Shown here: positions 8,522-52,607 of the stretch, piece by piece
How the letters are laid out: each line of letters begins with the position of its first letter
Position numbering within the stretch: position 1 is the stretch's first letter
NCBI GenBank assembly: GCA_964630525.1
Contig: CAZVUY010000001.1
Coordinates: 114,901 to 178,900, forward strand
DNA: 64,000 bases
Direction of reading: 5' to 3'
From: an uncultured Candidatus Saccharibacteria bacterium
Lineage (GTDB): Bacteria > Patescibacteriota > Minisyncoccia > Phycocordibacterales > WO2-35-19
The notes under the pieces: generated by a model
Databases searched by the model: none
What the model saw: only the letters and a program-made list of their open reading frames with translations
Told to the model about the DNA's origin: nothing
Position numbers and translations under genes: made by a program

Positions 8522-8592
8522 TCCAGATCTAGATTTGCTTGAGTTCAAAACTACTATAAGATTATAGTACTTGTTTAATTAAACAAAAATTA

Positions 8593-9075
8593 ATGATAAA
8601 AAACAAAAAAACTAAAGCTGGTTTTACCCTGATCGAACTTTTGGTAGTGATCGCTATTATCGGTATCCTCTCTTCCGTAGTACTCGCGAGCCTCAATATC
8701 GCAAGAAGTAGGGGGGCAGATGCAAAAGTGAAAGCTCAGATCGCAAACATTCGTTCATCGGCCGAAATTTATTCCGACACAAACAGTGGTTATAACGGCA
8801 GTGCCGGAGATATAGACGGAACAATTCTCACTTGCACTACTGCAGATTCAATGTTTCAAGATACTGATTCTGGCATGATCCAATACACTGATTTAAACAA
8901 TTATCCAGCCCCAACTACTATCAGATGCTCTTCTACCGCTGACTCTTTTGTGGTCAGTGCCTCGCTTAGTACCGCCGGCGAATTTTGGTGCGTTGATGGT
9001 AGCGGCAACTCCACTCTCATCACCGGTGTAGACCATCTCACTGCCCATCCTGACGGCGCCACCTCTTGTAGCTAA
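8593..9075 (+). CDS. Type IV pilin / pseudopilin with prepilin-type N-terminal cleavage-methylation domain
   Basis: The leader MIKNKKTKAG|FTLIELLVVIAIIGIL is a classic G|FTLIE prepilin signature. Confidence 0.8.
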   Translation: MIKNKKTKAGFTLIELLVVIAIIGILSSVVLASLNIARSRGADAKVKAQIANIRSSAEIYSDTNSGYNGSAGDIDGTILTCTTADSMFQDTDSGMIQYTDLNNYPAPTTIRCSSTADSFVVSASLSTAGEFWCVDGSGNSTLITGVDHLTAHPDGATSCS

Positions 9076-15738: not shown

Positions 15739-16743
15739 ATGAAAAATAAAAAGACCTCACCCCAAAGAAAACTAGGTCCCAAAAAATCATTGGGGCAAAA
15801 TTTTTTGAGAGATCCGAAAATTTTGAAAAAAATAGTTGATTTCGCTCAAATCGAAAAAGGTGACACTGTGGTAGAGGTTGGACCAGGCGAAGGAGGCTTG
15901 ACGGAAGAGTTGTTAAAACAAGCAAAAAAAGTAATCGCGATCGAAAAAGATGAGGAGCTAGCAAAAAAGCTGGAAGATAAATTTCGGGATCAAATTCTAA
16001 ACTCAAGACTGAAGATTTTGGTGGGAGATATATTGGAGCTGAGAGCTGAGAGCTTAGAGCTTGAAGGAAGAAATCAGAAAAACAAAAACTCTGAGCTCTT
16101 AGCTCCAAGCTATAAGCTTGTCGGCAATATTCCGTACTACATTACCGGCGCTTTGTTTAAAAAATTTTTGGAAACAGAGCAACAACCAAAATCGATCACC
16201 TTTGTTGTCCAAAAAGAAGTGGCGGAGAGGATAGTGGCCCGAAACCCCAACTCCGCTAAAGCTTCGCGGGGCAAGCAAAAGGAAAGTATTTTGAGTATAT
16301 CGGTCAAGGTATATGGGGAACCAAAATTTGGCGGAGTCATCAAGGCTGGTAGCTTCTTTCCTAAACCAAAAGTTGATTCGGCTATTTTAAGTATTAGGAA
16401 TATCAGCAAAGAAAGATTCAATGATCTAATCCCCCCAACCCCCTTTACTTTAAAGGGGGAGGAGGCTCGAATAGAAAATAATTTTTTTGAAGAAATAACT
16501 CCCCCAACCACTCTTACAACAAGAGGGGAGTTGGAAAATAAATTTTTTGAAATATTAAAGACTGGCTTTGCTCACAAAAGAAAGCTGCTACTCCGCAACC
16601 TCCTCGACGCAAAAGTGTCAAAGGGCACCTTTGACACTTTTGCGATTAAAGAGGTTTTTGGAGTTTGTGGGCTGGATGAGAAAGCGCGGGCTGAAGATTT
16701 GAGAGTGGAAGACTGGCTAGCGCTTACACAAAAACTGGCCTAA
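15739..16743 (+). CDS. rsmA: 16S rRNA adenine dimethyltransferase RsmA/KsgA carrying two in-frame insertions
   Basis: It has LGQNFLRDPKIL...VVEVGPGEGGLTEEL and NIPYYIT. It is about 334 aa against about 260-290 typical. The first insert is the palindromic AGCT element at 16035-16119. The second is a ~65-bp x2 tandem duplication at 16431-16560. Confidence 0.85.
   Translation: MKNKKTSPQRKLGPKKSLGQNFLRDPKILKKIVDFAQIEKGDTVVEVGPGEGGLTEELLKQAKKVIAIEKDEELAKKLEDKFRDQILNSRLKILVGDILELRAESLELEGRNQKNKNSELLAPSYKLVGNIPYYITGALFKKFLETEQQPKSITFVVQKEVAERIVARNPNSAKASRGKQKESILSISVKVYGEPKFGGVIKAGSFFPKPKVDSAILSIRNISKERFNDLIPPTPFTLKGEEARIENNFFEEITPPTTLTTRGELENKFFEILKTGFAHKRKLLLRNLLDAKVSKGTFDTFAIKEVFGVCGLDEKARAEDLRVEDWLALTQKLA
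16035..16119. repeat. AGCT-rich palindromic miniature element inside the rsmA reading frame
   Basis: The left arm is ggagctgagagctgagagcttagagcttgaagg, an A-rich loop follows, and the right arm is ctctgagctcttagctccaagctataagctt. The same family occurs at 22327-22420, 22831/23247, 23857-23925, 53065-53115 and 55205-55280. Confidence 0.65.
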
Positions 16744-22326: not shown

Positions 22327-22420
22327 GGAGCTTGGAGCTAAAAGCTTAGAGCTTAGAGGAGAAAAATAAAAAATGATATAATTTTGAAAGCTTACAGCTC
22401 TAAGCTCTAAGCTCTAAGCT
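22327..22420. repeat. AGCT-rich palindromic miniature element filling the intergenic spacer exactly (stop-to-start)
   Basis: The sequence is ggagcttggagctaaaagcttagagcttagagg, an A/T loop, then aagcttacagctctaagctctaagctctaagct. Confidence 0.65.
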
Positions 22421-22423
22421 AAA

Positions 22424-22843
22424 ATGCGTTTTCAAATCCCACAATTCATCGACGTTGAAGATAAAATATTTGGTCCTTTTACCTTGAAGCAATTTATCTA
22501 CTTAGCCGGGGGGGCCAGTATCGCCCTCGCCTGCGTTACTATTTTCGGCTTAGTTTTGGGGCTCATGATCGCCTCACCGATCATCATCCTCGCCGCCGCG
22601 CTCGCTTTTTATAAGGTCAACAACAGACCGTTCATCAACATGCTCGAGTCTGCTTTCAAATATCTCACCAAAGACAAGCTTTATATTTGGCAAAAAAGCG
22701 AAAAAACTGAAGCTGAGATGGTGGCGGAAGAGAAAAAGTATAGCTCGGTCATTGTACCCAATCTTGGTGATAGCAAACTCAAAGACATGAACTGGCAATT
22801 GGATGTGAAGAAAAAGGAAGATGATCTATTAGCTAAGAGCTGA
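22424..22843 (+). CDS. Small two-TM membrane protein (VirB3-like position and topology)
   Basis: It is 139 aa with a hydrophobic hairpin LAGGASIALACVTIFGLVLGLMIASPIIILAAALAF. It lies upstream of the VirB4-like ATPase, as in Gram-positive T4SS operons. Confidence 0.4.
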   Translation: MRFQIPQFIDVEDKIFGPFTLKQFIYLAGGASIALACVTIFGLVLGLMIASPIIILAAALAFYKVNNRPFINMLESAFKYLTKDKLYIWQKSEKTEAEMVAEEKKYSSVIVPNLGDSKLKDMNWQLDVKKKEDDLLAKS

Positions 22844-22863
22844 GAGCTTGGAGCTTAGAGTAG
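22831..22863. repeat. Left half-arm of AGCT palindromic element
   Basis: The sequence agctaagagctgagagcttggagcttagagtag supplies the stop codon of the upstream gene. Confidence 0.55.
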
Positions 22864-22866
22864 AAA

Positions 22867-23235
22867 ATGCTAAAAACTTATAGAGATTTACTCATATGGA
22901 AAAGGTCGATAGATTTGGCAACAAAAGTATATAAAGTTACAGAAATTTTTCCAAAATCAGAAATATACGGGATTGTATCCCAAATGAGAAGATCGGCTGT
23001 TTCTATATCTTCAAACATAGCAGAGGGAAGGAACAGGGGCACAAGAAAAGATTTTGCTCAATTTTTGAGAATAGCGTTGGGTTCTACAGCGGAACTAGAA
23101 TCTCAGACAGAGATATCAAAAAATTTGAATTTTATAAACCAGATTGAATATTCACAGATAATCTCTGAGACAAATGAAATAGGAATGATGTTGCGTGCTA
23201 TAATTAGAAAGCTGGACTCTAAGCTCCAAGCTTAA
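22867..23235 (+). CDS. Four-helix-bundle protein of the '23S rRNA intervening-sequence protein' family
   Basis: It is 122 aa with YRDLLIWKRSIDLATKVYKVTEIFPKSEIYGIVSQMRRSAVSISSNIAEG, typical of the TIGR02436-like family. Half-arms of the AGCT element flank it on both sides. Confidence 0.75.
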   Translation: MLKTYRDLLIWKRSIDLATKVYKVTEIFPKSEIYGIVSQMRRSAVSISSNIAEGRNRGTRKDFAQFLRIALGSTAELESQTEISKNLNFINQIEYSQIISETNEIGMMLRAIIRKLDSKLQA

Positions 23236-23250: not shown

Positions 23251-23871
23251 ATGAAAAATGCTACTCAAGAATTTGTACCGATAGACGATGTGCGCGATGG
23301 GATAGCCATCCTCAAAAGCGGTGGGATGCGCGGCGTACTCATGGCTTCAAGCGTAAACTTCTCCCTCAAGTCAGAAGAGGAGAGGCAGGCTATCCTATTC
23401 CAATTCCAAGATTTCTTAAACTCTCTGGATTTTTCGGTCCAGATCATCGTCCAATCAAGAAAGCTCGATATCAGACCCTATATCGCCCTTTTGGAGAACA
23501 GGCACAAAGAGCAAACCAACGACCTGATGAAAATCCAGATCGAACAATACATTGCTTTCATTAGAAGTTTTACCGAATCGACCAACATCATGACCAAAAA
23601 CTTCTTCATTGTGGTCCCATATGATGCCGCCATCATCTCTACCAAAACAGGGTTGTTGGACAATTTGCGAGGCAATAGGAACAAAGAGACAAAGGAAGAA
23701 GATTTCGAAGAAAGGCGCAATCAGCTCGAGCAGCGAATGGGAGTGGTAGAGCAGGGCTTGGTGCGCTCCGGCGTCAGGGTAGCCAAGCTCGGTACCGACG
23801 AAGTGGTCGAGTTGTTTTATAAGATATTTAATCCGGGAGAAACGGAGAAACCAATCAAGCTTGGAGCTTGA
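23251..23871 (+). CDS. VirB4/TrbE/CagE N-terminal-domain-like protein (separate ORF)
   Basis: The motif IDDVRDGIAILKSGGMRGVLMASSVNFSLKSEEERQAILFQFQDFLNSL resembles the N-terminal domain of VirB4-family ATPases. Its stop codon lies inside a palindromic element. Confidence 0.5.
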   Translation: MKNATQEFVPIDDVRDGIAILKSGGMRGVLMASSVNFSLKSEEERQAILFQFQDFLNSLDFSVQIIVQSRKLDIRPYIALLENRHKEQTNDLMKIQIEQYIAFIRSFTESTNIMTKNFFIVVPYDAAIISTKTGLLDNLRGNRNKETKEEDFEERRNQLEQRMGVVEQGLVRSGVRVAKLGTDEVVELFYKIFNPGETEKPIKLGA

Positions 23872-23925
23872 AGCTAATAGCTTAGAGGAAAAAACTTTAA
23901 ACTCCAAGCTCTTAGCTCTAAGCTT
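23857..23925. repeat. AGCT-rich palindromic miniature element separating the two VirB4-like ORFs
   Basis: The sequence is aagcttggagcttgaagctaatagcttagagg, then aaaaaactttaaa, then ctccaagctcttagctctaagctt. Confidence 0.65.
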
Positions 23926-39567: not shown

Positions 39568-39618
39568 AAACCCCACCCGGCTTTTCAGCCACCCTCCCCT
39601 TGTTCAGGGGAGGGAAGG
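39568..39618. repeat. GC-rich REP-like element (ccccaccc...ccaccctcccctt-gttcagg-ggagggaagg), left copy flanking DUF559 gene
   Basis: An inverted copy lies at 40002-40049 and a direct copy at 46317-46362. Confidence 0.6.
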
Positions 39619-39626
39619 CACCACAT

Positions 39627-40438: not shown

Positions 40439-41461
40439 TTTCTCTCTTCTCTCCCCCGGAAAAAATAATCCTAAATGTTCATATCCTAATTTGGTCAACA
40501 CTCTACCACGAGGGGTGCGTTCGATAAATCCAATTTGGATCAGATAAGGCTCATTGAATTCTTCAATCGTAGCCTCTTCTTCGGCGAGAGAGGTGGCCAA
40601 AGTATTGAGGCCGACTGGGCCGCCATTAAATTTTTGAGCGATTGTTGTTAATAAATTTCTGTCAGACAGGTTTAGGCCAACCTCGTCTATACCAAGTAGG
40701 GCGAAAGCCTGGTTTACCACCTCTTCATCTATTTTTCTTTTTTCCATTTGGGCGTAGTCGCGAGCCCGCTTCAGCAGATAGTTGGCGGTTCTGGGGGTGA
40801 AGCGGCTGCGGCTAGCGATCGCTTTTTGAGCCGGTGTATCCAACTCGATTCCCAAAATATCAGCCGATCTTTTTACTATCTCCATTATTTCTGCTGGTGT
40901 GTAAAATTCGAGCTTGAAAATACCACCAGAAAAACGGCTCCGAAGTGGGGAAGAGATCATCGCTACTTTAGTTGTCGCTCCGATCAGGGTGAATTTGGGC
41001 AACTCTAGCTGGATAGTTCTGGCACTCGGACCCTTGCCAAGAATTATATCCAACGAACCAGATTCCATGGCGGGGTAGAGAACCTCTTCGATGTTTTTGT
41101 TGAGCCGATGAATTTCGTCTATAAACAAAATATCCTGAGCAGAAAGATTGGTTAATATCGAAGCGAGATCACCGACCTTTTCGATAGCTGGGCCAGAGGT
41201 TGAGCGCATTTGACTACCAGACTCTTTGGCGATAAGGTGGGCCAGGGTTGTTTTGCCTAAACCTGGTGGTCCATAAAAAAGCAGGTGCTCGGGAGGGTGG
41301 TTGCGTTCTTTGGCTGCTGAGAGCAGAATATGGAGGTTTTTCTTGATGTTTTCTTGGCCGATATAATCTGACCAGCGAGATGGGCGTAAGGTTTGGTCCA
41401 AAAAATCATAATCTCGCCCCTCATCTGACTGATCAGCAGGGTTTTTTGTTTTCCTTGACAT
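40430..41461 (-). CDS. ruvB: Holliday junction branch-migration helicase RuvB
   Basis: It has the Walker A LLFYGPPGLGKTTLA and a winged-helix C-terminus. Confidence 0.95.
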   Translation of the reverse strand: MSRKTKNPADQSDEGRDYDFLDQTLRPSRWSDYIGQENIKKNLHILLSAAKERNHPPEHLLFYGPPGLGKTTLAHLIAKESGSQMRSTSGPAIEKVGDLASILTNLSAQDILFIDEIHRLNKNIEEVLYPAMESGSLDIILGKGPSARTIQLELPKFTLIGATTKVAMISSPLRSRFSGGIFKLEFYTPAEIMEIVKRSADILGIELDTPAQKAIASRSRFTPRTANYLLKRARDYAQMEKRKIDEEVVNQAFALLGIDEVGLNLSDRNLLTTIAQKFNGGPVGLNTLATSLAEEEATIEEFNEPYLIQIGFIERTPRGRVLTKLGYEHLGLFFPGERREKLL

Positions 41462-41524
41462 ATTTTATGCTACATGATATACTTCTCCAGAATTTGCATT
41501 GTGGCAAAATTGGCGGCGGTTGGA

Positions 41525-41684
41525 GGTACAAATCTCTAAGCGGCGGTTCACCTTGGGTGGATTTTGACATTAAATCAAGGAAGTGCCGGTGCCATCTTTC
41601 TAAGAGGGATTGCTAGCGCTCTCCTCAGAGTAATGTTTTGCTTTCGATATAAAAATTGAAAGTGCCGCTTAGAGATTTGTATCC
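41525..41684. other. ~160-nt element closed by a 20-bp perfect long-range inverted repeat (ggtacaaatctctaagcggc / gccgcttagagatttgtatcc); candidate structured RNA or miniature element
   Basis: The arms lie at 41525-41546 and 41664-41684 in the pilB-ruvB intergenic region. The interior contains GAAGUGCCGG and GAAAGUGCCGC motifs. Confidence 0.3.
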
Positions 41685-41747
41685 CTAATTCCCATTATTC
41701 ATAAAAGGTTGCCTCGGGCAATTTTTTATGTGAATAACTTTTCATTC

Positions 41748-43427
41748 TTAAGACTCTATATCGATGACCCTGCTCAGTTCATCCAAAGAAGTGATTCCTT
41801 TTAGAATTTTTATTACCCCATCTTGGAGCATGTTCGGTATGCCTTGATCTTCAGCGGCCTTATTTATCTCTCTTTCGCTCGGGTTTTGGATGACCGCAGC
41901 CTCTATTCTTTCGTCAGTAACGATCGCTTCATAGATACCGGTTCTACCTCGATAGCCGGTGAAATTGCACAGGGCACAACCGACCGCTTCATGAATGTTG
42001 TTTGGGTCAATTTCTTTCAAGAAATCCTTGTCTTTGATTTCACTCAAAACTTTTTTGATCAGGGCCGCGTCTCTCTCGTTTGGTAGTGATTTTTTCTTGC
42101 ATTTATCACAAAGTTTTCTTACCAATCTTTGAGCCATAGCCAAATTGATAGCGGAAGTAATAACTTTTGGGTTTACCCCGAGATCAATCAATCTGGGGAA
42201 TGTGCCAGCGGCGTTGTTAGTGTGTAAGGTAGAGAAAACCAAGTGTCCAGTCAAAGCCGAGTTTACGGCTATCTCAGCTGTTTCTTCGTCGCGAATTTCT
42301 CCAACCATGATAATGTCCGGATCTTGGCGTAAAGCACTCCTGAGGCCTTCCAGAAAAGTGTAACCTTTTTCTTCCTCTGTTTGGGTTTGGACGATTCCCT
42401 TGAGATGGTACTCGATCGGGTTTTCAATAGTGATAATTTTGACTTCTGGCGAGTGGATCTTTCTCAAGAAAGCATAAAGGGTGGTGGTTTTACCCGAACC
42501 AGTCGGCCCGGTATTGAGAATCATTCCGTTGGGTTTCTTTAGTTCTTTCAGAAGGATGTTTAACAGCTTATTGTTGATACCCAAATCTTCCAAAGAGACA
42601 GCGATGGCGTTTGGGTTGAGGACTCGCAGCACCACGGAGTCGCCATAATTACCAGGGAGTAGGGAAGTACGGATCTCTATTTCGGTATCGCCAATTTTTA
42701 TACTAAACCTACCGTCTTGAGCCTTACCTTTAATGTTGAGCTTAAGGTTTGAAATGAGCTTGATTCGGGAGAGTAACAGACTGTAAATATTGTGATCAAG
42801 CTCTAAGATATCGTTTAGTACTCCGTCTAGTCGGTAACGCAGTCGGACCGAAGCCTCTTCTGGTTCGATGTGGATATCCGAGGCGTTTATGGAGATGGCG
42901 CCCGCTAGGATGATCTCTAAGATTCTGGTTATTCGATAACTCTTTTTTTGGGCCAAGACTTGGTCAATAGAATTTTTGATATCGGAAACACTTTTGACGT
43001 TTTTCACTAAGTCCTGGATTTCTTCATTCGCAATATCCAAAGCACCTCCCTTGGTTTCCATCGAATAAGATAAGTCCTTGTAGCGCTCCCAAACTTTTTG
43101 GAGACTTTGGTGAGAGACCATAAAAAGATTGACCAAGTAGCCTCTACTTTTCAAATCATCTATTATTTCAATCGTTTTCGGGTTGTTGGGGGAAATAATC
43201 GCCAAGGAAACCTTTTTGTTTATTATATTGAAGGGGGCGACTTCCGCTGCCTTTGCCACCTCTTCTTTTACAAGACGTAGAGCATCAATATTGATCGGGT
43301 TTACGCCCAGGTCAATATAGGAGAGACCGTATTTTTGAGACATTATCTTTGCCAACCCCTCTTCTTCCTCTTCTCGTAGGGTTTCTAATTTTCTTTTCTG
43401 CTTTCCTTCGTTGAATTGGATAACCAT
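41748..43427 (-). CDS. pilB: Type IV pilus assembly ATPase PilB (GspE family)
   Basis: It has the Walker A LNTGPTGSGKTTTL, an Asp box, His box and a tetracysteine motif. Confidence 0.9.
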   Translation of the reverse strand: MVIQFNEGKQKRKLETLREEEEEGLAKIMSQKYGLSYIDLGVNPINIDALRLVKEEVAKAAEVAPFNIINKKVSLAIISPNNPKTIEIIDDLKSRGYLVNLFMVSHQSLQKVWERYKDLSYSMETKGGALDIANEEIQDLVKNVKSVSDIKNSIDQVLAQKKSYRITRILEIILAGAISINASDIHIEPEEASVRLRYRLDGVLNDILELDHNIYSLLLSRIKLISNLKLNIKGKAQDGRFSIKIGDTEIEIRTSLLPGNYGDSVVLRVLNPNAIAVSLEDLGINNKLLNILLKELKKPNGMILNTGPTGSGKTTTLYAFLRKIHSPEVKIITIENPIEYHLKGIVQTQTEEEKGYTFLEGLRSALRQDPDIIMVGEIRDEETAEIAVNSALTGHLVFSTLHTNNAAGTFPRLIDLGVNPKVITSAINLAMAQRLVRKLCDKCKKKSLPNERDAALIKKVLSEIKDKDFLKEIDPNNIHEAVGCALCNFTGYRGRTGIYEAIVTDERIEAAVIQNPSEREINKAAEDQGIPNMLQDGVIKILKGITSLDELSRVIDIES

Positions 43428-43558
43428 GAATTAAATTGTACCATAAGACCTCACCCCCGACCCCTCTCCCCCCGCTTCGCCAAGGCTTCGCTGGGCGAGT
43501 AGAATTAGGAGAGGGGAGAAATAGAAGCTTGTAGTTTTATGGTAGTATAGAAAATTAT

Positions 43559-43999
43559 ATGGAAATTATTTCTAAAAATACAGAAGAAACCAAACAGGCA
43601 GCTTTCGATTTTGCCGCTAATTTAAAGCCGAGAGGTACCGGCGCGACCATAGTCGGTCTTTATGGCGAGCTTGGTGCTGGCAAGACCACTTTTATGAAAT
43701 ATTTAGCCGAACATTTTGGAGTAAAAGAAACAGTACAGAGTCCAACTTTTGTGATTATGAAATCTTTCAATCTTTCGACCCCTCCTTTTTTTAATAAGCT
43801 GATCCATATTGACGCCTATCGCCTAGAAGACCCGTCAGAGATGCTCAAATTGGGTTGGCAAGAAATGATTGGTTACCCCAAAAATCTGATTTGTATCGAA
43901 TGGCCGGAAAAAATAGAAAACATCTTACCACCCCATATTGTGGTAAGATTTGAGCATGTTAAAGACGGGGAAAGTCAAAGAAAGATTAGTTTTGCTTGA
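43559..43999 (+). CDS. tsaE: tRNA threonylcarbamoyladenosine biosynthesis protein TsaE
   Basis: It has the P-loop GELGAGKTTFMKYLAEHFG and QSPTF. Confidence 0.8.
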   Translation: MEIISKNTEETKQAAFDFAANLKPRGTGATIVGLYGELGAGKTTFMKYLAEHFGVKETVQSPTFVIMKSFNLSTPPFFNKLIHIDAYRLEDPSEMLKLGWQEMIGYPKNLICIEWPEKIENILPPHIVVRFEHVKDGESQRKISFA

Positions 44000-46316
44000 T
44001 GCCCACGCCATCATTCACCGGGCGTATCACGCTTTGCCGGATTTTGCGACTAGCCGAGGGGAACCGACCGGGGCTCTCTACGGCCTTACTTTGATGGTTT
44101 TGAAGATCGCTTCCGAACTGAAACCCGATTTCCTGATCGCTTGTTTTGATCTGCCCAAACCCACTTATCGACACGAGGTTTACGAGGGCTACAAAGCTGG
44201 TCGGCAGAAGACTGACGACGACCTGGCAATCCAGCTTGAGAAGTCGAAATCGATCTGCGAGGCGCTCAACATCCCGATCTACTCCAAAGAAGGATTCGAA
44301 GCCGATGATATGCTTGGGACCATTGTGGAAAGGTTGAAAAATGAAGATTTAGAAATCATTATCGCTTCTGGTGATATGGACACTCTCCAGCTTGTCGACG
44401 GCCAGGTGAAAGTCTATACCCTTAAAAAGGGAATCAAAGACACGATCCTTTATGATGAAAAAGCTGTTAAAGAAAGATTTGGTTTTGAACCCCGACTTCT
44501 GCCCGATTATAAAGGTTTGCGGGGCGACCCCTCAGACAACATTATTGGAATTCCCGGTATTGGTGAGAAAAGTGCGACCGAACTCATCACCAACTTTGGT
44601 AGTCTGGAAAACATATACAAAAAATTAAAAGCCAAAAACTCAGAACTTCAGGAAAAAATAAAACCAAGAACTCTGGAATTGTTGAAAGAGGGAGAAGAGG
44701 AAGCCAAATTTAGCAAAATGCTCGCTACCATTAGAAGGGATGCCTCGATAGATTTTGAACTACCTAAAAAACGTTGGTCTGATGGACTAGACTTAAAAAG
44801 AGCTGAAGAGATATTTACCGCCTTTGAATTTAGAACAATGGGCCAAAAACTCAGGGAGGCTTTAAATAAAAATGGGACAGCAACAGTAGAAAAACAAAAA
44901 CAAACAGAAGATATAAATCCTACCGAACTAGAAGAGACTCTCTTGGCTTTGTGGGTGGTGGATTCGAATATCACTAACCCGAAAATCGAAGATCTTTTCA
45001 GATTTGCTCAGACTGAGGATTTCCGTGTGGCTAGAGACAAAGTTTTCTTGGAGCTTAAAAAGAGAGAAAGCGAATCTGTTTTTGCCGAAATAGAAAAGCC
45101 GCTAATCCCGATCCTGAAGGAAACCGAGCGCTATGGTATTTTGGTCGATAAAGTTTTTTTGGGTAAACTCAAAGAAGAATATTCCAAAGAATTGAAAGAG
45201 GTTGAAGAAAAGATCTGGCAACTGGCTGGTGCCACTAAATTCAATATCGCTTCACCAAAGCAACTCTCAGAGATTCTTTTTGATAAGCTTGGACTCCAGG
45301 TTAAAAATCACAAGAAGACTGGATCTGGTGCCAAGTCGACCCGCGAATCAGAATTGGAGAAGATGAAAGGAATGCACCCGATCGTACCGTTGGTGCTGGA
45401 GTATCGGGAAATCAGCAAACTTCTCTCTACTTATATCGAACCGATCCCAAAAGCACTTGACCAAAATTCAAGACTTCATTCTCACTTTGTCCAAGCCGGA
45501 GCAGCGACAGGTAGAATGTCTTCGGAAAATCCAAATTTGCAAAATATTCCGATTGGGAGTGAGAGGGGTAGAAGAATAAGACATGCTTTCTTGGCATCAA
45601 CAGGCCACCAGCTGCTGGCTCTCGACTATTCCCAGATTGAACTAAGGATCGCCGCTATCTTATCCAGAGAAGATAGTCTGATTGATATTTTTAAGAGCGG
45701 CAAGGATGTGCACACCGCGGTTGCGGCAGAAGTGTTTGGTGTTTCTCTGGAATCGGTGACCAAAGAGATGCGTCGCCAAGCGAAGGTGATAAATTTCGGT
45801 ATTCTCTATGGTATGGGAGTGAACGCTCTTCAGGTTAATCTGGGTACTGACCGGAAAACTGCCCAACAATTTTTGAATGCTTATTTTGCTAATTTCCCGA
45901 AATTGTCAGAGTATTTGGATCAGTCAAAACTGAGGGCGGAGCGTGATGGTTATACAAAAACCATCTTTGGCCGGCGCCGCTATTTTGAAGGGATCAAATC
46001 AAAAATCCCTTACATCAAGGCAGCGGCGGAGAGGATGGCGATCAACGCGCCAATTCAGGGTACCAACGCTGACATTGTCAAAATAGCAATGAAAAGAATT
46101 GATGAGATGCTACAGCAAGAGGGGTGGTCAAAAGAAGTACATCTGCTCATGCAAATACATGACGAATTGGTGTACGAAGTGAATGACCGGCTTATCGACC
46201 CTTTTAGTAGGGTGGCAAAAGAGATCATGGAACAAGTGTTGACCAAGGAGCAGACTCTCGGGGTGCCGATCGTTGTCAATCATTCAGTTGGGCCAAATTG
46301 GGGGGAGATGAAATGA
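43950..46316 (+). CDS. polA: DNA polymerase I (5'-3' exonuclease + polymerase domains)
   Basis: It has the 5'-nuclease N-terminus, motif A DYSQIELRIAA, motif B RRQAKVINFGILYGMG and motif C QIHDELVYEV. Confidence 0.95.
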   Translation: MSMLKTGKVKERLVLLDAHAIIHRAYHALPDFATSRGEPTGALYGLTLMVLKIASELKPDFLIACFDLPKPTYRHEVYEGYKAGRQKTDDDLAIQLEKSKSICEALNIPIYSKEGFEADDMLGTIVERLKNEDLEIIIASGDMDTLQLVDGQVKVYTLKKGIKDTILYDEKAVKERFGFEPRLLPDYKGLRGDPSDNIIGIPGIGEKSATELITNFGSLENIYKKLKAKNSELQEKIKPRTLELLKEGEEEAKFSKMLATIRRDASIDFELPKKRWSDGLDLKRAEEIFTAFEFRTMGQKLREALNKNGTATVEKQKQTEDINPTELEETLLALWVVDSNITNPKIEDLFRFAQTEDFRVARDKVFLELKKRESESVFAEIEKPLIPILKETERYGILVDKVFLGKLKEEYSKELKEVEEKIWQLAGATKFNIASPKQLSEILFDKLGLQVKNHKKTGSGAKSTRESELEKMKGMHPIVPLVLEYREISKLLSTYIEPIPKALDQNSRLHSHFVQAGAATGRMSSENPNLQNIPIGSERGRRIRHAFLASTGHQLLALDYSQIELRIAAILSREDSLIDIFKSGKDVHTAVAAEVFGVSLESVTKEMRRQAKVINFGILYGMGVNALQVNLGTDRKTAQQFLNAYFANFPKLSEYLDQSKLRAERDGYTKTIFGRRRYFEGIKSKIPYIKAAAERMAINAPIQGTNADIVKIAMKRIDEMLQQEGWSKEVHLLMQIHDELVYEVNDRLIDPFSRVAKEIMEQVLTKEQTLGVPIVVNHSVGPNWGEMK

Positions 46317-46362
46317 CCCCACCCAGCCTTTGGCCACCCTCCCCTTGGTAAGGGGAGGGAAG
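46317..46362. repeat. GC-rich REP-like element, third copy
   Basis: ccccacccagcctttggccaccctccccttggtaaggggagggaag lies immediately after the polA stop. Confidence 0.55.
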
Positions 46363-46370
46363 ACAAAAAC

Positions 46371-46799
46371 ATGGAAAATCAAAGTTTATTTAAAGAATAC
46401 AAAGGAGTTTTTGAAGAAGAAGTCGAAACTCCAAAAGAAAAGAAAGAGCTTGAATATACGTATTCTCCTTTTGCCCTACAAGATGCGATTGGGGAGCGGA
46501 ATGTTAAAAATATTTGGATACAATACAACAAACTCATCTTCCAAGGTGTTGAACCCGAAGAGTTGGTCCATAAAATTGTTGGCAAAGTGAGAGATATGGT
46601 GGCGATCGGTGCTGGGGCTAGTGCGCTAGACTTGGGTATCAAAGATTATCCATTCAATAAATCAAAAAAAGATTTGAAAAATTGGAAAACAGACGATTTG
46701 AAAAATTTTTATACCAAACTAATCACTCTTTATCACGAATCAAGAATGGGTGGTGATGAGCTAGGGATTGCTTTAGAGAAAGCACTGCTAAGTTTATAA
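46371..46799 (+). CDS. Hypothetical protein; its last ~25 codons are duplicated at 48122-48199
   Basis: The C-terminus is ...HESRMGGDELGIALEKALLSL. Confidence 0.5.
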   Translation: MENQSLFKEYKGVFEEEVETPKEKKELEYTYSPFALQDAIGERNVKNIWIQYNKLIFQGVEPEELVHKIVGKVRDMVAIGAGASALDLGIKDYPFNKSKKDLKNWKTDDLKNFYTKLITLYHESRMGGDELGIALEKALLSL

Positions 46800-46842
46800 T
46801 TACACCGAATTATAGTATGGAGATAAAGTAACGAATAAGTGC

Positions 46843-48108
46843 TTACCCAGCAAAACCTATAAAAGCGACGTATCTCCCAATTACAGCTCCAACTATCACA
46901 ATAATAATACACACGGAAAGAGTGATCATCAGATGAGATGGAGTGGCGTTAGTCGCTATTCCAGATAATTTCTTTTTATTGTTAAACTTGTAAGCCATTA
47001 CGGTAAAAATTATTGCGGAAATCCAGTAAAAAAAGATTGGGTCTGTTGTTTGTCCCACTACTTCACCCAAACGGGCAACAAAAATATTCCTGTAGGCGCT
47101 GTTTAGGAAACCATATTCCGAAGTTAGGGTAGACAATAAAGCGAGAATACTTGTAAAAAACCCTGCAAAAGAATAAACGTTTATTTTTACAAAATCATTC
47201 GTATTGTTTTTATAAATTAAAAATCCAATAAAGATGATTAGTAGAATTCGCATGATGTTTGTAAAAACCCCAGTCTCTAAGCCGGGAGTAATTTTTACAT
47301 CATCAATCATTGTGGGAAAATTTGTTGTCGTGTAATCCAACCACTGGCCCCTCTCTTTTTGTAACTGCTCTAATGTTGCAATATCGCTGATTTTTCTTAC
47401 CTGACTGTAAGAATTGTATGCTACATGGGGGTAAACGCTCCTATAAATTCCTGGCGAGATTTCCCCTTCATAACCTATTCCACCCGGACTGTATTTAACG
47501 GTATAATCCGCGGCGGGGACACTTATTATGTAATCATTATATTCTGCTGCTAATGCGTATATGTCGGTCACATCTACGTTGTCAAAATACTTTGTAATTT
47601 TAAAATAATGAGTACATGAACCATTACCACATAAGAAATTTATAATTTCTGTATCAGGGGCTTGGCCACTTGTTACAGGAAGACCATTACTTTGGGGGAA
47701 AGGCGTCTGGTCATCAGTGGTTACAGTAGGAATTGTTATTCCAAATTTATTACTAATTTCTAAACTCCCAGGAGCAATAATATATATCTTAAAACCATAG
47801 CCAGAACCATAAATGTCTGGAACAATCAAACTATATGAACCATTATTTGGTACTCCGGAAGCAATTTCATATACATAATTTCTGTCAGGGTTGTCGTTAT
47901 TCGGTACTTCTAGCTTAATATCAACAGTAGGAGAATTGGTGAAAGTGTTCCACTTTATATCAAAACTTGAACCTTGGACCAAATTTTCATTACCACTAGG
48001 GGCAAGAATAAAAGAGCTTGGGCTCGGTGTAGTAACTTGCGCGTAGATATGGAATGGGAATAAGACTAAAAACTCAAAAATAGCTATAAACGCTATTATC
48101 CTTCTCAT
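46843..48108 (-). CDS. Hypothetical surface protein: signal peptide, extracellular domain, C-terminal multi-TM anchor
   Basis: It is 421 aa with at least 4 C-terminal hydrophobic helices. Direct repeats at 46732-46765 and 48132-48165 bracket it. Confidence 0.55.
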   Translation of the reverse strand: MRRIIAFIAIFEFLVLFPFHIYAQVTTPSPSSFILAPSGNENLVQGSSFDIKWNTFTNSPTVDIKLEVPNNDNPDRNYVYEIASGVPNNGSYSLIVPDIYGSGYGFKIYIIAPGSLEISNKFGITIPTVTTDDQTPFPQSNGLPVTSGQAPDTEIINFLCGNGSCTHYFKITKYFDNVDVTDIYALAAEYNDYIISVPAADYTVKYSPGGIGYEGEISPGIYRSVYPHVAYNSYSQVRKISDIATLEQLQKERGQWLDYTTTNFPTMIDDVKITPGLETGVFTNIMRILLIIFIGFLIYKNNTNDFVKINVYSFAGFFTSILALLSTLTSEYGFLNSAYRNIFVARLGEVVGQTTDPIFFYWISAIIFTVMAYKFNNKKKLSGIATNATPSHLMITLSVCIIIVIVGAVIGRYVAFIGFAG

Positions 48109-48239
48109 TCTGAAATATTACATGAACCAACATCACGAATCAAGAATGGGTGGTGATGAGCTAGGTCTTGACCTCGAAAAGGCGATTCTCAAACTTTGAT
48201 TTATTATAATTTTATAGTATATTTGCTCTTGTATTTATT

Positions 48240-48315
48240 GCGCCCGTAGCTCAGTCGGTAGAGCAGCTCCCTTTTAAGGAGATGGTCGTAGGTTCGATTC
48301 CTACCGGGCGCACCA
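48240..48315 (+). tRNA. tRNA-Lys (anticodon UUU)
   Basis: Acceptor GCGCCCG/CGGGCGC, D-arm GCUC-AGUCGGUA-GAGC, anticodon loop CUUUUAA, T-arm GUAGG-UUCGAUU-CCUAC and an encoded CCA. Confidence 0.85.
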
Positions 48316-49779
48316 GAAAGGAAATTGCAAGTCAGAGCTCGCCGCCTCGCTCTGCTCGGCGGCTCGCGCGTATTGTATTTTCGGCTCAAAACGGAATTCG
48401 CGATTTCGCAAAACATGGTTCGCGCCGATGTTTTTTAGAAATGCTGTCATTTTGGCAAAATCATTTTCGTTAGTCAGATTCGCGGCTTGATTCAAGGATA
48501 AAACAAATTCACGAGCCGGTTCGAGCCAAGACGCTCCTTTTTGCTCGATGTCGGTAATTTTCTCCTCCAATCGCACTTTTTCATACACGAGAGAGTTCTT
48601 TTTGGCGGCGTATTCGTCTGTGGATAGCGCGTCAGAAAGATAAAGGTTGAGAAGTTTTTCGAGCTTTGCCTCAATCTGCGCGAGTTCTCTTTTTAGAGTT
48701 TCCGCTTCTGTTCGCGCTTCCTCCTTTGCTTGCTCCTCGTCTTGTTCCAACGCCGCCAAAACTTTCTTGGTGTCTTGGCCCGATAAAGAAACTTTTTGAA
48801 GATAAGTTTTGATTTGCGCGGCAAGCATAGTTTCGCTGATGTAGCGTTCCGGGCACGCGCCTCGTTTTTTGGTACAGCGATAGTAGGTATAAGAGCCACC
48901 ATTGCCTTTTGCATATTGCGCGGTAATAGAACAACCGCACGAGGCGCATTTGAGTAGTCCGAGGAACGCGAAACTGTGTTTGCGGTCTGGTCGCACCTTG
49001 CCGCGCTTTTGCATAACTTCTTGGCATTTATCAAAAAGTTTCTTTGAAATTAACGGCTCGTGTTTTCCCTCAAAAGTTTCCGACTTGTACCTCATCAAAC
49101 CAGTGTAGAAAGGATTTTGGAGTATGGACTGAACATTGCTTAATGATATTTTCTTGCCTTTGTTGCCGAGCAGTTTCTTTTTCTCACACCAATTTGCGAG
49201 AGCAGAAAGTGGATATGCTCCGGTGGCGTAGAGTTCAAACATTTTTCTCACTTTCGGTGCTTTGTCGGGGTCAATATCAATTATTCTCGTCTTGGGATTG
49301 TTGAGATAGCCCACCGGAGCCCAGCCGGGCCATACTCCATTTCGTATCTTTTGCCGCAAACCTCTTTTTACATTCTCTCTCAAATTGTCTACGAAATATT
49401 TACTCTGTCCGAAAGCAATGTTCAACATAAACAAGCCTTGTGGTGTCGGTTCAAACCAAAAAGTCGGAAACTTGAGGGAACGAATCAAGCCGCGATCAAT
49501 CAGATGTATGATTTTGCCTCCGTCCACCGAATTTCGGGCAAGGCGGTCGGGGTGCCACGCGATAATGCCGTCTGCTTTTTGTCGTTCAATCAATGACAGC
49601 ATTTCTGCGAACTTCGTTCGCCCGGGCTCTTTTGCGGTTTTCGCCTCCTCAAAGGAGGCGACAATTTCAAGTTTTTCTTTGACGGCGAATGCGCGCAACT
49701 CTTCAAGTTGCGCCTGAATAGAAAGCACCTGTCTGTCCTCTTCCTCTGTACTTTTTCTTGCGTAGAGTATGTATCTCAT
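48301..49779 (-). CDS. Large serine recombinase (resolvase/invertase catalytic domain + recombinase domain + zinc ribbon)
   Basis: It carries YARKST and the active-site Ser region, ...VGYLNNPKT..., CxxC...C, and a coiled-coil C-terminus. The ORF reads through IR-A into the tRNA, so the true 3' end is uncertain. GC content is visibly higher than in flanking genes. Confidence 0.8.
   Translation of the reverse strand: MRYILYARKSTEEEDRQVLSIQAQLEELRAFAVKEKLEIVASFEEAKTAKEPGRTKFAEMLSLIERQKADGIIAWHPDRLARNSVDGGKIIHLIDRGLIRSLKFPTFWFEPTPQGLFMLNIAFGQSKYFVDNLRENVKRGLRQKIRNGVWPGWAPVGYLNNPKTRIIDIDPDKAPKVRKMFELYATGAYPLSALANWCEKKKLLGNKGKKISLSNVQSILQNPFYTGLMRYKSETFEGKHEPLISKKLFDKCQEVMQKRGKVRPDRKHSFAFLGLLKCASCGCSITAQYAKGNGGSYTYYRCTKKRGACPERYISETMLAAQIKTYLQKVSLSGQDTKKVLAALEQDEEQAKEEARTEAETLKRELAQIEAKLEKLLNLYLSDALSTDEYAAKKNSLVYEKVRLEEKITDIEQKGASWLEPAREFVLSLNQAANLTNENDFAKMTAFLKNIGANHVLRNREFRFEPKIQYARAAEQSEAASSDLQFPFWCAR
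48309..48408. repeat. ~100-bp perfect inverted repeat IR-A (partner 49826-49925) bracketing the serine recombinase; begins inside the tRNA-Lys 3' end
   Basis: gcaccagaaaggaaattgcaagtcagagctcgcc...cggaattcgcgatttcg has an exact reverse complement at 49826-49925. Confidence 0.7.
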
Positions 49780-49825
49780 GTTGTTTTGATTGAATTAAGG
49801 ATTAAAAATTTTTCTTCCCCTCAAA

Positions 49826-49925
49826 CGAAATCGCGAATTCCGTTTTGAGCCGAAAATACAATACGCGCGAGCCGCCGAGCAGAGCGAGGCGGCGAGCTCT
49901 GACTTGCAATTTCCTTTCTGGTGCA
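49826..49925. repeat. IR-A' (inverted copy of 48309-48408)
   Basis: It is an exact reverse complement of IR-A. The 26-bp IR-C ggattaaaaatttttcttcccctcaa (49799-49824) precedes it, and its partner is at 50061-50086. Confidence 0.7.
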
Positions 49926-50012
49926 GGATACTTGAATTAGTGCGAACCCACCGCGCCTTCGGCGCGGCACAACCCCCGCCAAAAATGCAGGCGGCGAAGC
50001 CGCACCGCTCAA
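49921..50012. repeat. ~92-bp perfect inverted repeat IR-B (partner 51006-51097) bracketing a membrane-protein gene
   Basis: gtgcaggatacttgaattagtgcgaacccaccgcgccttcggcgcggcacaacccccgccaaaaatgcaggcggcgaagccgcaccgctcaa has an exact reverse complement at 51006-51097. Confidence 0.7.
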
Positions 50013-50257
50013 AACCGCAAAAGAGCCCGGAAAAAACATCGGCGCGAACCATGTTTTGAATTGAGGGGAAGAAAAATTTTTAATCCAATAAATTCCCAAG
50101 GAAGAAGCCGCAATCGTGCGGATTTTTCGTTGCCCTTGACGTAAGGTACGGAATATGCTATGCTTATTTGCGAAAGATTGAGCCATGGTGGCTTGGTCGC
50201 AATAGCACATTTTCAACTCAAAAAACGGAGGTGCAGCTTGAGCGCAGAAACGATTGG

Positions 50258-50849
50258 CATGGTTTCTGGGCTGTTGGTGGTGGCGAGCGTCATCCCTTAC
50301 AGCATCAGAACCCACCAGGGCAAGGTGCAGCCGAACCTGACGAGCTGGTCGCTCTGGACGCTGATCGGCCTCGCCCTCTTGCTCACTTACAAGAGTTCGG
50401 GTGCCGAAGCGAACGTCTGGCCAGCGGTGTTCGGGTTCACTAACCCGCTCCTCATCACCTTGCTTGTTCTCAAACAGCATGGTGGGTGGACGAAGCCAAA
50501 CCGAGTCGAGGTCGCTTGTCTCGTGTTTGGCCTGTTGTCTCTCGGCCTGTGGCTGGGAGTTCGCGAAAACAAGGAGATGGCCCAATGGGCTCTCTATCTG
50601 GCAATTGTCGCGGACTTGTTCGCGGCGATTCCCACGATTGTGTTCGTGTGGACGCAACCGAATGGCGACCGACCGTTTGCTTGGGCGTTCTTCGCCGTCG
50701 GCTATGGTCTGGCAATCTTCGCCATTACCGAACACACCTTCGCGAACTACGTTCTCCCGCTCTACATGTTCTTCGGAGCGTTGAGCGTTACTCTCCCACT
50801 CGTTCTGTATCGGTGGCGACACAAAGTCCCGTTGTCGGAGTGGGTATGA
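50258..50849 (+). CDS. Hypothetical polytopic membrane protein (about 6 TM) inside IR-B/IR-B' segment
   Basis: The sequence from MVSGLLVVASVIPYS... onward is GC-rich. The track ORF starts at 50160. The antisense ORF 49821-50975 is an alternative that I judge spurious. Confidence 0.45.
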
Positions 50850-51005
50850 GTCAGAGACGAATAGCAAATCCGAGGCCCCTTGTGGTAGCAACATCACCAC
50901 TTGGGGCCTTTCTTCTTTTTGATTTGTTTGGTTATTTTTCATACAATACATTTGGTGTTTGCTTCGCAAACTCACATTTATTCGCCGTCAAAGAAAAACT
51001 TGAAA

Positions 51006-51097
51006 TTGAGCGGTGCGGCTTCGCCGCCTGCATTTTTGGCGGGGGTTGTGCCGCGCCGAAGGCGCGGTGGGTTCGCACTAATTCAAGTATCCTGCAC
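51006..51097. repeat. IR-B' (inverted copy of 49921-50012)
   Basis: It is an exact reverse complement of IR-B. Confidence 0.7.
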
Positions 51098-51280
51098 AAA
51101 ATAGCGGAGCAATTTTGTGCGCCCGAGCAAGCAAACTGCTTTGCTTGCGGGTAGGAATCGAACGGCGGAATGTGAAATTTGGAGCACCAAATTTCCATGA
51201 GCCGGTGCCCAGACCAAAAATTTGTGACTGACAAATTTTTGAGTCGAGGGAGATATTCCTACCGAGATTTTATTATTATC

Positions 51281-51309
51281 TTGACAAATCCTTCCCAAAG
51301 AGGTAATTT
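51281..51309 (+). promoter_or_regulatory. Sigma70-like promoter (TTGACA-17-TAATTT) with strong SD AAGGAGG before 51387
   Basis: ttgacaaatccttcccaaagaggtaattt is followed by ggctaaggaggtcgcATG. Confidence 0.45.
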
Positions 51310-51386
51310 TGTGGTGGAACCGACTCAGACTTTTCCTATATGGGATTGCTCTGAAATCTACAAGCCTATATGGCTAAGGAGGTCGC

Positions 51387-51923
51387 ATGATAACACAAAG
51401 AGCCTTCAAAAAGCTCGCTGAACAGAACCGTTGGTTGGTTGGTGCCTTGGAAAATCTGAAGCATCCCGACGACGACAGACCGTTTGAACGACGGGTCAAG
51501 GAGAGCATTGCCTTTATCGCTTTTCGCCCATTTGAGAAGCTGAGTCCAAACTGGCTGGCAAAGGGTGAATTTTACCCAATCTTCCACAAATCTCGGATGG
51601 CTGGAAGTGACGGAGCAATGTGTAGCTCCTATCCGCTTATTGTTTTTCATAAAGAGGGTTGGGAAGGCTTCAAGTATGTCCAACTCTCTCCACTCAACAC
51701 GGGTCTGACGATCGGGAAATGTATGGAGTGGTATGTAGACACTGCAAAGAAGAATGGATATCCAAAATGTATTGCCTTTGATGCAGTTATTATCCCGCTT
51801 CAAGTTCGCATCAACCCACACCGAATGATCGCCGAGTGTTACGAGATTTACCGATTTCCCGAGCCACTTGATTTTAAGTTTGACGACTTCAAGAAGTGGC
51901 TGGTAACCGCACCGCAGGAGTAA
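51387..51923 (+). CDS. Hypothetical protein (island cargo)
   Basis: It is 178 aa with no motif I recognise. It has a strong RBS and promoter. Confidence 0.5.
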   Translation: MITQRAFKKLAEQNRWLVGALENLKHPDDDRPFERRVKESIAFIAFRPFEKLSPNWLAKGEFYPIFHKSRMAGSDGAMCSSYPLIVFHKEGWEGFKYVQLSPLNTGLTIGKCMEWYVDTAKKNGYPKCIAFDAVIIPLQVRINPHRMIAECYEIYRFPEPLDFKFDDFKKWLVTAPQE

Positions 51924-52202
51924 TCAGAGGCTCGCCTAGTAGTGGAGACACGAACGGCGAGTCTTCTTCGTTTTTATATTGACAATTCGTGCACAAAACA
52001 ATATTCTTCCGTCTAAGTCAGGTTCCTTGCGGAATGGAATGGGTAGAACGCGGTCAAGTCTGAACTGCAAGCTAGTATAGAGTTCGTGCCATTCTTCACT
52101 TGCTCCAACGTATAAGTGAGCGAGGCTTCTCTTGGGTTGGAAATCTGACAAGTGCCCGGGCGTTCACGCGTCCGGGCTATAATTTATACAAATAAGTATT
52201 TT

Positions 52203-52607
52203 CTACAACGGTAAATCGACAGCGAAGGCGCCGGCGCCGGAGAGGAGAAGGGAGAGTAGGATTGATAAAATCAAAATATAGAAGACAAAGTTTCTTTTGA
52301 GAATGCTCGGGTCTTTATATTCCACATAAGCTTCGGCAAAGGTGAGGAGGGCGAGCACTAGGGCAATGATTTGGGTATAAAATCCAACTAGCAACATAAG
52401 TCCTCCGATCACCTCGACGGTACCCAGTATTTTGACTGCCAATTCTGGTCTCGGTATTCGGAGGGCGGAACAGGAAACTATCCAACACCTCTTTTCGTTT
52501 TTGAAGGCGAGAGCGCCCAAATTTACGAATATCAAACCCACCACCACCCGGATAATAAAAGGCGAAAGAAGCGAGAAGGCGAGCAGGTCTGGAAATGGAT
52601 TTAACAT
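52203..52607 (-). CDS. DoxX-family membrane protein
   Basis: It has four hydrophobic helices and LLSPFIIRVVVGLIFVNLGALAF...GTVEVIGGLMLLVGFYTQIIALV. Confidence 0.7.
   Translation of the reverse strand: MLNPFPDLLAFSLLSPFIIRVVVGLIFVNLGALAFKNEKRCWIVSCSALRIPRPELAVKILGTVEVIGGLMLLVGFYTQIIALVLALLTFAEAYVEYKDPSILKRNFVFYILILSILLSLLLSGAGAFAVDLPL

Follow-up and report, generated by a model that had tools for sequence, protein, structure and literature searches.

The last codons of a holA-like gene in an uncultured Zambryskibacteria bacterium of the candidate phyla radiation (CPR) are the site of an insertion, by which the gene received a new 3' end and a gene for a predicted surface protein was brought in. 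The analysis concerns a 64-kb stretch of DNA, in the following called the window; related loci and contigs are designated by L-numbers and protein homologs by P-numbers. A unit of 1,400 nucleotides (nt) is located among the final 20 codons of this gene and consists of a 34-nt core, a 34-nt replacement tail with a stop codon, a 43-nt spacer, a cargo gene encoding a protein of 421 amino acids (aa), and 23 further nt. The holA-like open reading frame (ORF) has not been disrupted, as its last 11 codons are provided by the incoming DNA. The native tail now lies 1.4 kb further downstream, immediately before tRNA-Lys, as a stub without function. The insertion, by which the tail was replaced, is real and recent; events of this kind are ordinary, but the host is unusual. 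On balance, we lean towards the view that the unit is a tail-swapping islet without an integrase, which would have entered by a single crossover of circular DNA within the core.

The direct repeat and the two gene ends

The chimeric holA-like gene (46371..46799, plus strand, 142 aa) lies downstream of polA (43950-46316) and consists of a native body and the imported last 11 codons, its product ending with ...HESRMGGDELGIALEKALLSL before the stop codon. The insert is delimited by a 34-nt direct repeat, ATCACGAATCAAGAATGGGTGGTGATGAGCTAGG, which is present in exactly two copies in the window, also when three mismatches are allowed. Core copy 1 (attL-like, 46732..46765, plus strand) is situated inside the holA-like gene and comprises the codons for HESRMGGDELG, and core copy 2 (attR-like, 48132..48165, plus strand) is where the displaced native 3' end begins. 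The exact repeat described in an earlier note on this DNA is real and not expected by chance, as such a pair had 0 occurrences in 100 dinucleotide shuffles. No other long direct repeat of this kind exists within the window.

Copy 1 is followed by the imported replacement tail (G)IALEKALLSL with its stop codon (46766..46799, plus strand), and copy 2 by the native tail LDLEKAILKL with its stop codon (48166..48199, plus strand), which is a pseudogene stub. An ATG that is supplied by the insert end by chance turns this second copy into a 25-codon mini-ORF (48122-48199) reading MNQHHESRMGGDELGLDLEKAILKL. Past the core, the tails share 7 of 11 residues and have 16 nt differences over 33 nt, 10 of these differences being at third codon positions. 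With random placement of 16 substitutions, such an amino acid identity without a stop codon has a probability of about 2e-4, and Nei-Gojobori counts give a pS of ~1, which is saturated, and a pN of ~0.3. The diverged DNA with similar tail peptides, for which the earlier note had suggested a Ka/Ks comparison, has thus diverged in the manner of coding sequence.

The identity between the copies changes in one step from 34/34 in the core (33/34 in the sister strain L045, see below) to 17/33 in the tails. Family-wide, the nucleotide conservation of the core does not exceed that of the tail, the mean identities per 6-nt bin being 0.47-0.68 and 0.39-0.77, respectively. Therefore, the step records the event itself and not a constraint.

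Tail 1 is identical to the tail of the L008 lineage at 27/33 nt, to the allele of L001 at 21/33, and to the native tail at 17-18/33. The attached peptide GIALEKALLSL also occurs as an identical tail in the distant family member P0051, which is found in an ordinary sigma/anti-sigma context. These comparisons show that the tail now present on the gene is a foreign allele from a different lineage that arrived with the insert. An in-place tandem duplication of the gene's 3' end, with later divergence and a separate insertion of the surface-protein gene, would also account for two similar peptides in the same orientation. This explanation is effectively refuted and retains next to no probability, as divergence in place cannot yield 0/34 differences beside 16/33 with saturated synonymous sites, the attached tail is nearer to that of another lineage (27/33) than to the native one (17-18/33), and the insert is 100% identical between two strains.

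The holA-like protein matches Pfam PF21694 (E=3.7e-6), and the match is restricted to the C-terminal domain of the delta subunit of DNA polymerase III. The family comprises 174 database homologs of ~140-150 aa each, which are encoded in genomes of Candidatus Zambryskibacteria and related Patescibacteria/Paceibacteria. This form, the delta C-terminal domain alone (~142 aa), is conserved beside polA, and a longer form of 206 aa is encoded in the distant relative L025 (4677-5297).

Empty sites in relatives and polarity of the event

L001 (JGI Ga0490029_000041), the nearest relative, can be aligned collinearly with window positions 40473-46784 at ~92% identity. The alignment then jumps, and window positions 48132-48313 match L001 8362-8543 at 96%. 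In L001, the last position of the holA-like gene is 8429 and the first of tRNA-Lys is 8470. The earlier note had proposed to look in relatives for a holA-like gene directly before tRNA-Lys. This adjacency of ~40 nt, without the 421-aa gene, is present in the close relatives L001, L002, and L005, and the same adjacency is found in the more distant L012, L021, and L022. L007 also has no insert, its contig breaking off inside the tRNA. A predicted 'tRNA-Stop(tta)' in L012 was rejected, as the anticodon loop is the same and the gene is a normal tRNA-Lys.

The empty-site proteins P0001 and P0002 end with GLALEKAILKL, which is the tail of the mini-ORF except for one residue; the stub in the window carries a private GCC-to-GAC change. 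Since the empty-site proteins carry the tail of the mini-ORF, copy 2 is the original 3' end, and the present tail of the gene came with the insert. The body of the holA-like protein in the window is 96% identical to P0001, and an exact database look-up of the whole protein gave no record. The earlier note had considered an insertion that duplicated the target 3' end. The insertion between two copies of the 3' end is borne out by the empty sites, but there was no target duplication, since the shared part is the core of at most 34 nt and the attached tail is foreign. The description of the mini-ORF as a diverged duplicate has the polarity reversed: the mini-ORF represents the original native end, which in L045 is identical to the native sequence of L007, and it is a stub and not a gene. 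The identity of the stub in L045 with the native allele also indicates that the event is recent.

It is very improbable that the occupied arrangement is ancestral for the clade and that the empty relatives arose by deletion between the cores. Recombination between the 34-nt repeats would give exactly the structures of L001 and L007. Against this, the direct adjacency is also found in L012, L021, and L022, whose holA-like proteins are only 47-68% identical to that of the window; the 421-aa gene occurs in only two clusters among 5.8 billion proteins; the stub of L045 is identical to the native allele, so that the event is recent; and the repeats would still require an earlier integration.

In a search for remnants in relatives by tblastn with the own C-terminal 30 aa of each locus, only the window gave a real match (E=1e-8). 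Weak matches (E 0.05-0.1) were obtained in L017/L037 and L015/L027/L028, and the one in L017, when read directly, lies in AT-rich spacer over a possible hairpin.

A sister strain and independent assemblies

The same structure is contained in L045, an independent Logan contig from another sample and another assembler, which spans tRNA-Lys, the stub, the cargo gene, and the chimeric gene and extends into polA. L045 and the window differ by 56 mismatches over 4,771 nt, none of which lies in the insert. In the compared part of the window (43500-48270), the differences are clustered at 43600-44745 (~3.6%) and 46433-46679 (~4.5%), and a 1.5-kb stretch of polA between these clusters has none. A recent spread, proposed from the clean insert (binomial P=6e-9 for zero mismatches), was withdrawn because the mismatches are clustered and the polA stretch is equally clean. 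As an observation in its own right, this clustering suggests frequent import of short recombination patches.

At core position 26, copy 1 has a T in both the window and L045, and native sequences have a C. Copy 2 of L045 has the native C at this position and the codon GCC, and it is identical to the native sequence of L007, so that the cores of L045 differ at position 26 and its repeat is one of 25 + 8 nt. The T at position 26 and the GAC codon in copy 2 of the window are later changes, and the perfect 34-mer of the window may be partly secondary.

An assembly artefact, i.e., a chimeric join at a short repeat, might be suspected because the genome is of metagenome type and the region of the neighboring recombinase looks patchworked. 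It is contradicted by L045, which independently reads through the whole structure with an exact repeat of only 25 nt, shorter than k, and by L046 and L047 (1,430 and 1,426 nt, from two further runs), which match at 100%. We assign a negligible probability to this explanation.

The cargo gene

The cargo gene (46843..48108, minus strand) encodes a predicted surface or membrane protein of 421 aa, as judged from Pfam, hydropathy, and dN/dS. It is the only credible ORF of the insert, all other ORFs of at least 20 aa lying inside or overlapping it. The protein matches PF10342 (Kre9/KNH Ig-like domain, E=7.7e-8) and has a beta-rich middle part. Its hydropathy profile, with an N-terminal signal-like segment and hydrophobic C-terminal transmembrane segments, agrees with the signal peptide and multi-transmembrane anchor that the earlier note had read from the sequence. 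An AlphaFold2 model was unusable (predicted local distance difference test, pLDDT, 34.7).

Only two clusters among the 5.8 billion proteins mentioned above have the full-length architecture, and further matches are confined to the Ig-like domain in giant proteins. The sole homolog, P0122, is 81% identical to the cargo protein with a dN/dS of 0.16, which indicates that the cargo is a real gene. At its locus, L048, the homologous gene lies beside tRNA-Arg(TCT) and pilMNO-like genes without flanking repeats, and the homology begins only ~16 nt before the ATG and ends with the stop codon. As the only other lineage with this gene has it in other surroundings, the gene is a portable module. No match to the cargo protein was found in viral contigs, INPHARED phages, or PLSDB plasmids.

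The ORF ends 43 nt from the first stop codon and begins 23 nt from the second core. The 43-nt spacer (46800..46842) lies between two convergent stop codons, is part of the insert, is missing in L001, and has no homology to L048 or L008. The right end of the insert comprises the 23 nt upstream of the cargo ATG (48109..48131). On the minus strand, this end contains a -10-like TAATAT, which is separated by a 17-nt spacer from a -35-like TTGATT in the adjoining core, with the ATG 6 nt further on. Read from inspection of the sequence, such a hybrid promoter across the right junction is weak, as it reaches 8/12 and falls below the scan threshold.

Mechanism of the insertion

According to the proposed mechanism, the chromosome and a circular DNA would have undergone one reciprocal (Campbell-type) crossover inside the core. 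On the circle, a core matching that of the chromosome at 33/34 positions would have preceded the foreign tail and the cargo gene, and the integrated product would begin with the left part of the chromosome and continue with a core, tail 1, the cargo, the 23 nt, the second core, and the native tail. The state of L045, with T in copy 1 and C in copy 2, would place the crossover in the first 25 nt of the core; a T in copy 1 together with a wholly native copy 2, as present in L045, is what a single crossover left of position 26 predicts. Since the insert encodes no recombinase, the crossover would have been catalyzed in trans or by host homologous recombination. In the former case, a site-specific recombinase would have acted on what may be a decayed, integrase-less islet of the type of cis-mobilizable elements (CIMEs); in the latter, RecA-type recombination would have used ~25-34 nt of identity. 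The same repeats would permit a precise excision that restores the native gene.

The homology breaks off abruptly at both ends, and the compact insert holds a single gene bordered by no more than 23 nt and 43 nt of non-coding DNA. In the chromosome, the core followed by GATTGC is found only after ...CACTCTTT, and ...GAACCAAC followed by the core is found only before TCTTG. A circle or tandem junction would read ...ACATGAACCAAC + core + GATTGCTTTAGAG, and an empty site of the same strain would read ...ATCACTCTTT + core + TCTTG[A/C]CCTC and be marked by the T at 46727.

Several points speak against such an islet. ORF scans and searches with Pfam, PHROG, and PADLOC detected no recombinase or transposase in the insert, and the core is without convincing dyad symmetry or secondary structure (z ~-1.3 for the core alone). 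In protein-guided scans, none of the 44 related loci listed contained a second case or an integrase-bearing element with the same core. The sole nearby recombinase, a large serine recombinase (48301-49779), acts on another site, which lies at the end of the tRNA and has an overlap of 4 nt. The donor search yielded P0122 as the sole homolog cluster, in another context, and no donor. Logan contigs of 1,426 and 1,430 nt are no evidence of a circular form, being what an assembler with k=31 yields at a 34-nt repeat. The window and L045 probably share one ancestral event and hence do not testify to repeated mobility. Finally, a site-specific and a homologous crossover would be indistinguishable from the sequence alone.

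Further searches for features of mobile elements were likewise negative. No terminal inverted repeats link the two insert ends, and the reconstructed circle junction of 134 nt folds no better than shuffled sequences (z -1.65 and -1.35) and is not attC-like. The core has 0 matches in viral contigs. No tyrosine recombinase is encoded by the ORFs scanned, which are part of those in the window; the neighbors are polA, the holA-like gene, tRNA-Lys, and the serine recombinase.

Three classes of elements were rejected. For an integron cassette, there is no attC-like hairpin and no adjoining IntI/attI platform. For an insertion sequence or transposon, inverted repeats and a transposase are missing, and the repeat has 34 nt and runs on into a homologous but diverged coding tail. 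For an integration by a large serine recombinase of the phiC31 type, the att sites would share a core of a few nt, whereas 34 nt are shared here and only GCAC at the neighboring element. The contigs L046 and L047, which start and end in the core, were also considered as a circular form, which was rejected because such unitigs are expected at a repeat longer than k-1 with k=31.

A different origin would be a one-off join without a mobile element, in which linear environmental DNA of related Zambryskibacteria was incorporated by homology-facilitated illegitimate recombination or by a template switch during replication. The left junction would then have formed via the short identity of the core, and the right junction, ...GAACCAAC/ATCACG..., would be illegitimate and would have re-copied 34 nt of the recipient. 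The absence of a recombinase, terminal inverted repeats, and a hairpin from the insert fits this explanation, as does the occurrence of the structure in one lineage only. Lineages with tails similar to tail 1 share long exact stretches of the core, in L015 21 nt including the T at position 26, so that a short homology could anchor the join, and inter-lineage recombination is strongly evidenced at the holA-like gene by the mosaic L007 and the patchy divergence of L045. However, two coordinated junctions would be needed that spare the holA-like ORF, the cargo gene with its upstream stretch of 23 nt, and the promoter region of tRNA-Lys. In addition, a recipient-derived copy 1 should have the native C at position 26, and the T in both strains requires an extra mutation. 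In the known cases of homology-facilitated illegitimate recombination, recipient DNA is deleted rather than duplicated. We hold such a one-off join to be possible, if rather unlikely.

Improbable in our view is an active integrase-less cassette of a single gene that targets the last codons of the holA-like gene and always carries its own replacement tail. In that case, the recombinase acting in trans would be provided by the host or be the large serine recombinase at a distance of 200 nt. If true, rare surface proteins would be exchanged among these CPR bacteria through a minimal cassette system at a hot spot formed by polA, the holA-like gene, and tRNA-Lys.

Comparison with known systems

The class of mechanism has long been known from e14 in icd, CIMEs, and islands at tRNA genes, i.e., from prophages and genomic islands. 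In Escherichia coli, e14 and phage 21 integrate into the 3' end of the housekeeping gene icd, whereby the element supplies a slightly different 3' end and the native end is left as a 163-bp pseudogene, icd' (PMC6379469, PMC13626634). Excision of e14 restores the native icd (PMC6379469, PMC13626634; Hill et al. 1989, cited therein). The icd end supplied by e14 differs from the native one by two conservative substitutions and a few synonymous changes (PMC13626634). As in e14/icd, the insert in the holA-like gene is flanked by direct repeats, one of which lies inside the 3' end of the target gene, the ORF is kept open by a substitute 3' end, the native end has been displaced and is retained as a pseudogene, and an unoccupied site with the native gene end exists in relatives. 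In contrast to e14, which has ~15 kb and its own integrase and excision functions, the insert has 1.4 kb with one cargo gene and no recombinase, and the replaced tail comprises only 11 codons and is far more diverged (~50% nucleotide identity).

Streptococcal CIMEs are located at the 3' ends of fda, rpsI, and rpmG and have attL/attR repeats but no genes for integration or transfer; 'classical CIMEs' with cargo have 1.2-13 kb (PMC5704250, PMC7563491). The insert resembles them in its size of 1.4 kb, its single cargo gene, cores in the role of attL and attR, and the lack of integration and transfer genes. CIMEs have a cognate integrative and conjugative element (ICE) or integrative and mobilizable element (IME) using the same att site, often in tandem, and are mobilized in cis when an incoming element undergoes accretion with them, whereas no cognate element was found here among the 44 related loci listed. 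Conjugative elements are not known in this CPR lineage.

As in genomic islands at tRNA 3' ends, the insert is flanked by a direct repeat of the 3' end of its target, whose product is restored. Examples of such tRNA-directed insertions are also present at this locus, namely the 22-nt repeat of the tRNA-Lys end in L001 and the serine recombinase element of the window (see below). Unlike in these islands, the target is a protein-coding tail, so that the restored part can and does diverge at synonymous sites, and the insertion is on the 5' (promoter) side of tRNA-Lys and not in the tRNA. The topology matches exactly that of the Campbell integration of a suicide plasmid, in which one crossover in a short homologous segment leaves this segment doubled around the circle. 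Suicide plasmids are laboratory constructs with hundreds of bp of homology, however, whereas 34 nt are shared here and the circle is hypothetical.

The variable region around tRNA-Lys

tRNA-Lys(UUU) (48240-48315, plus strand), which was identified with ARAGORN and Rfam (RF00005, 74 bits), is the native right-hand neighbor of the holA-like gene. The ORF list and ARAGORN confirm that the ORFs, the mini-ORF, and this tRNA are arranged as reported in the earlier note, and an Rfam scan of the region found no structured RNA besides the tRNA. A promoter-like site (TTGATT, 16-nt spacer, TATATT; 48196..48223, plus strand), which was located by a consensus scan and overlaps the stop codon of the stub, is predicted to serve tRNA-Lys. 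From the stub up to the tRNA, the sequence shows a conservation of 95-100% in L001, L007, and L045.

In relatives, the usual backbone consists of polA, the holA-like gene, an opposite-strand pair of extracytoplasmic function (ECF) sigma factor and anti-sigma factor or nothing, tRNA-Lys, DoxX, and SpoU. Accessory genes in the interval from the holA-like gene via tRNA-Lys to DoxX are RelB/YafQ in L008-10, Fic in L024, and a reverse transcriptase in L001. The recombination hot spot that the earlier note had offered as an alternative thus applies to this wider interval, with its differing accessory genes, a second independent insertion, and the mosaic L007; the insert itself is read as an insertion.

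This second insertion is a 2.8-kb element (window 48301-51104) at the 3' end of tRNA-Lys that is absent from L001. It encodes the large serine recombinase (48301-49779, minus strand, 492 aa; Resolvase, Recombinase, and Zn_ribbon_recom domains; phrog_95 integrase), the last three codons and stop codon of which are taken from the tRNA, and a GC-rich (0.56) membrane protein of 229 aa (50160-50849). Exact database look-ups of both proteins gave no record. The junctions of the element, ...gggcGCAC/cagaaagg... and ...tatcctGCAC/aaaatagc..., share only GCAC. Inside the element, 49826-50012 is a 100%-identical inverted copy of both element ends joined, resembling an attP junction (region 49799-50086, with 48310-48436 and 50980-51104). 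Nearby are perfect inverted patches of 20-29 nt (49622-49641/50011-50030, 49662-49690/50980-51008, 49799-49824/50061-50086, and 48409-48436/50031-50058). This patchwork could be caused by recombinase-driven rearrangement or by an assembly chimera of integrated and circular forms.

The 3' end of tRNA-Lys occurs in L001 as a direct repeat of 22 nt (8527-8548 and 8701-8722) on both sides of ~170 nt, which are 99.4% identical in the window (51094-51264) compared to a background of ~92% and look like an older tRNA-Lys integration scar. L001 8795-10036 contains a reverse transcriptase (RVT_1, 291 aa) and a 103-aa ORF, and the window contains an unrelated, unannotated ORF of 178 aa at 51265-52203, which characterizes this position as a strain-variable slot.

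L007 (1-1598 versus window 45257-48269) has an identity of ~70% over polA and the 5' part of the holA-like gene and of 95-100% from ~46581 through the native tail into tRNA-Lys. This mosaic points to inter-lineage recombination with a putative breakpoint inside the holA-like gene. The tRNA-Lys beside the holA-like gene is on the minus strand in L013-L016 and L019 and on the plus strand in the window, L001, L017, L018, and L020. Its occurrence on either strand among Zambryskibacteria indicates that the segment was inverted during evolution.

Two further repeats were observed in the window. A GC-rich hairpin, GCCACCCTCCCCTTG...AGGGGAGGGAAG, is present in two near-identical copies (39588-39620 and 46333-46365), each downstream of a gene, in one case polA, and looks like a terminator. 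An intergenic repeat family, AGCT(K)RGAGCT(N)AGAGCTTAGAGCTT..., is present in four copies (16037-16083, 22329-22375, 22831-22877, and 23858-23904) with identities of 66-100%.

Biological significance

For annotation, the 25-codon mini-ORF should be labeled as a gene remnant and the holA-like gene as a chimera. The worth of the locus lies in a clean example from an uncultured lineage and not in a new principle. The region from polA and the holA-like gene through tRNA-Lys to DoxX is a variable region in Zambryskibacteria, with toxin-antitoxin, Fic, reverse transcriptase, and serine recombinase genes as cargo. The insert provides a record, at the level of base pairs and with an empty-site control, of how a strain-specific surface-protein gene entered a tiny CPR genome, an entry that spared both a conserved replication-related gene and the predicted promoter of tRNA-Lys.

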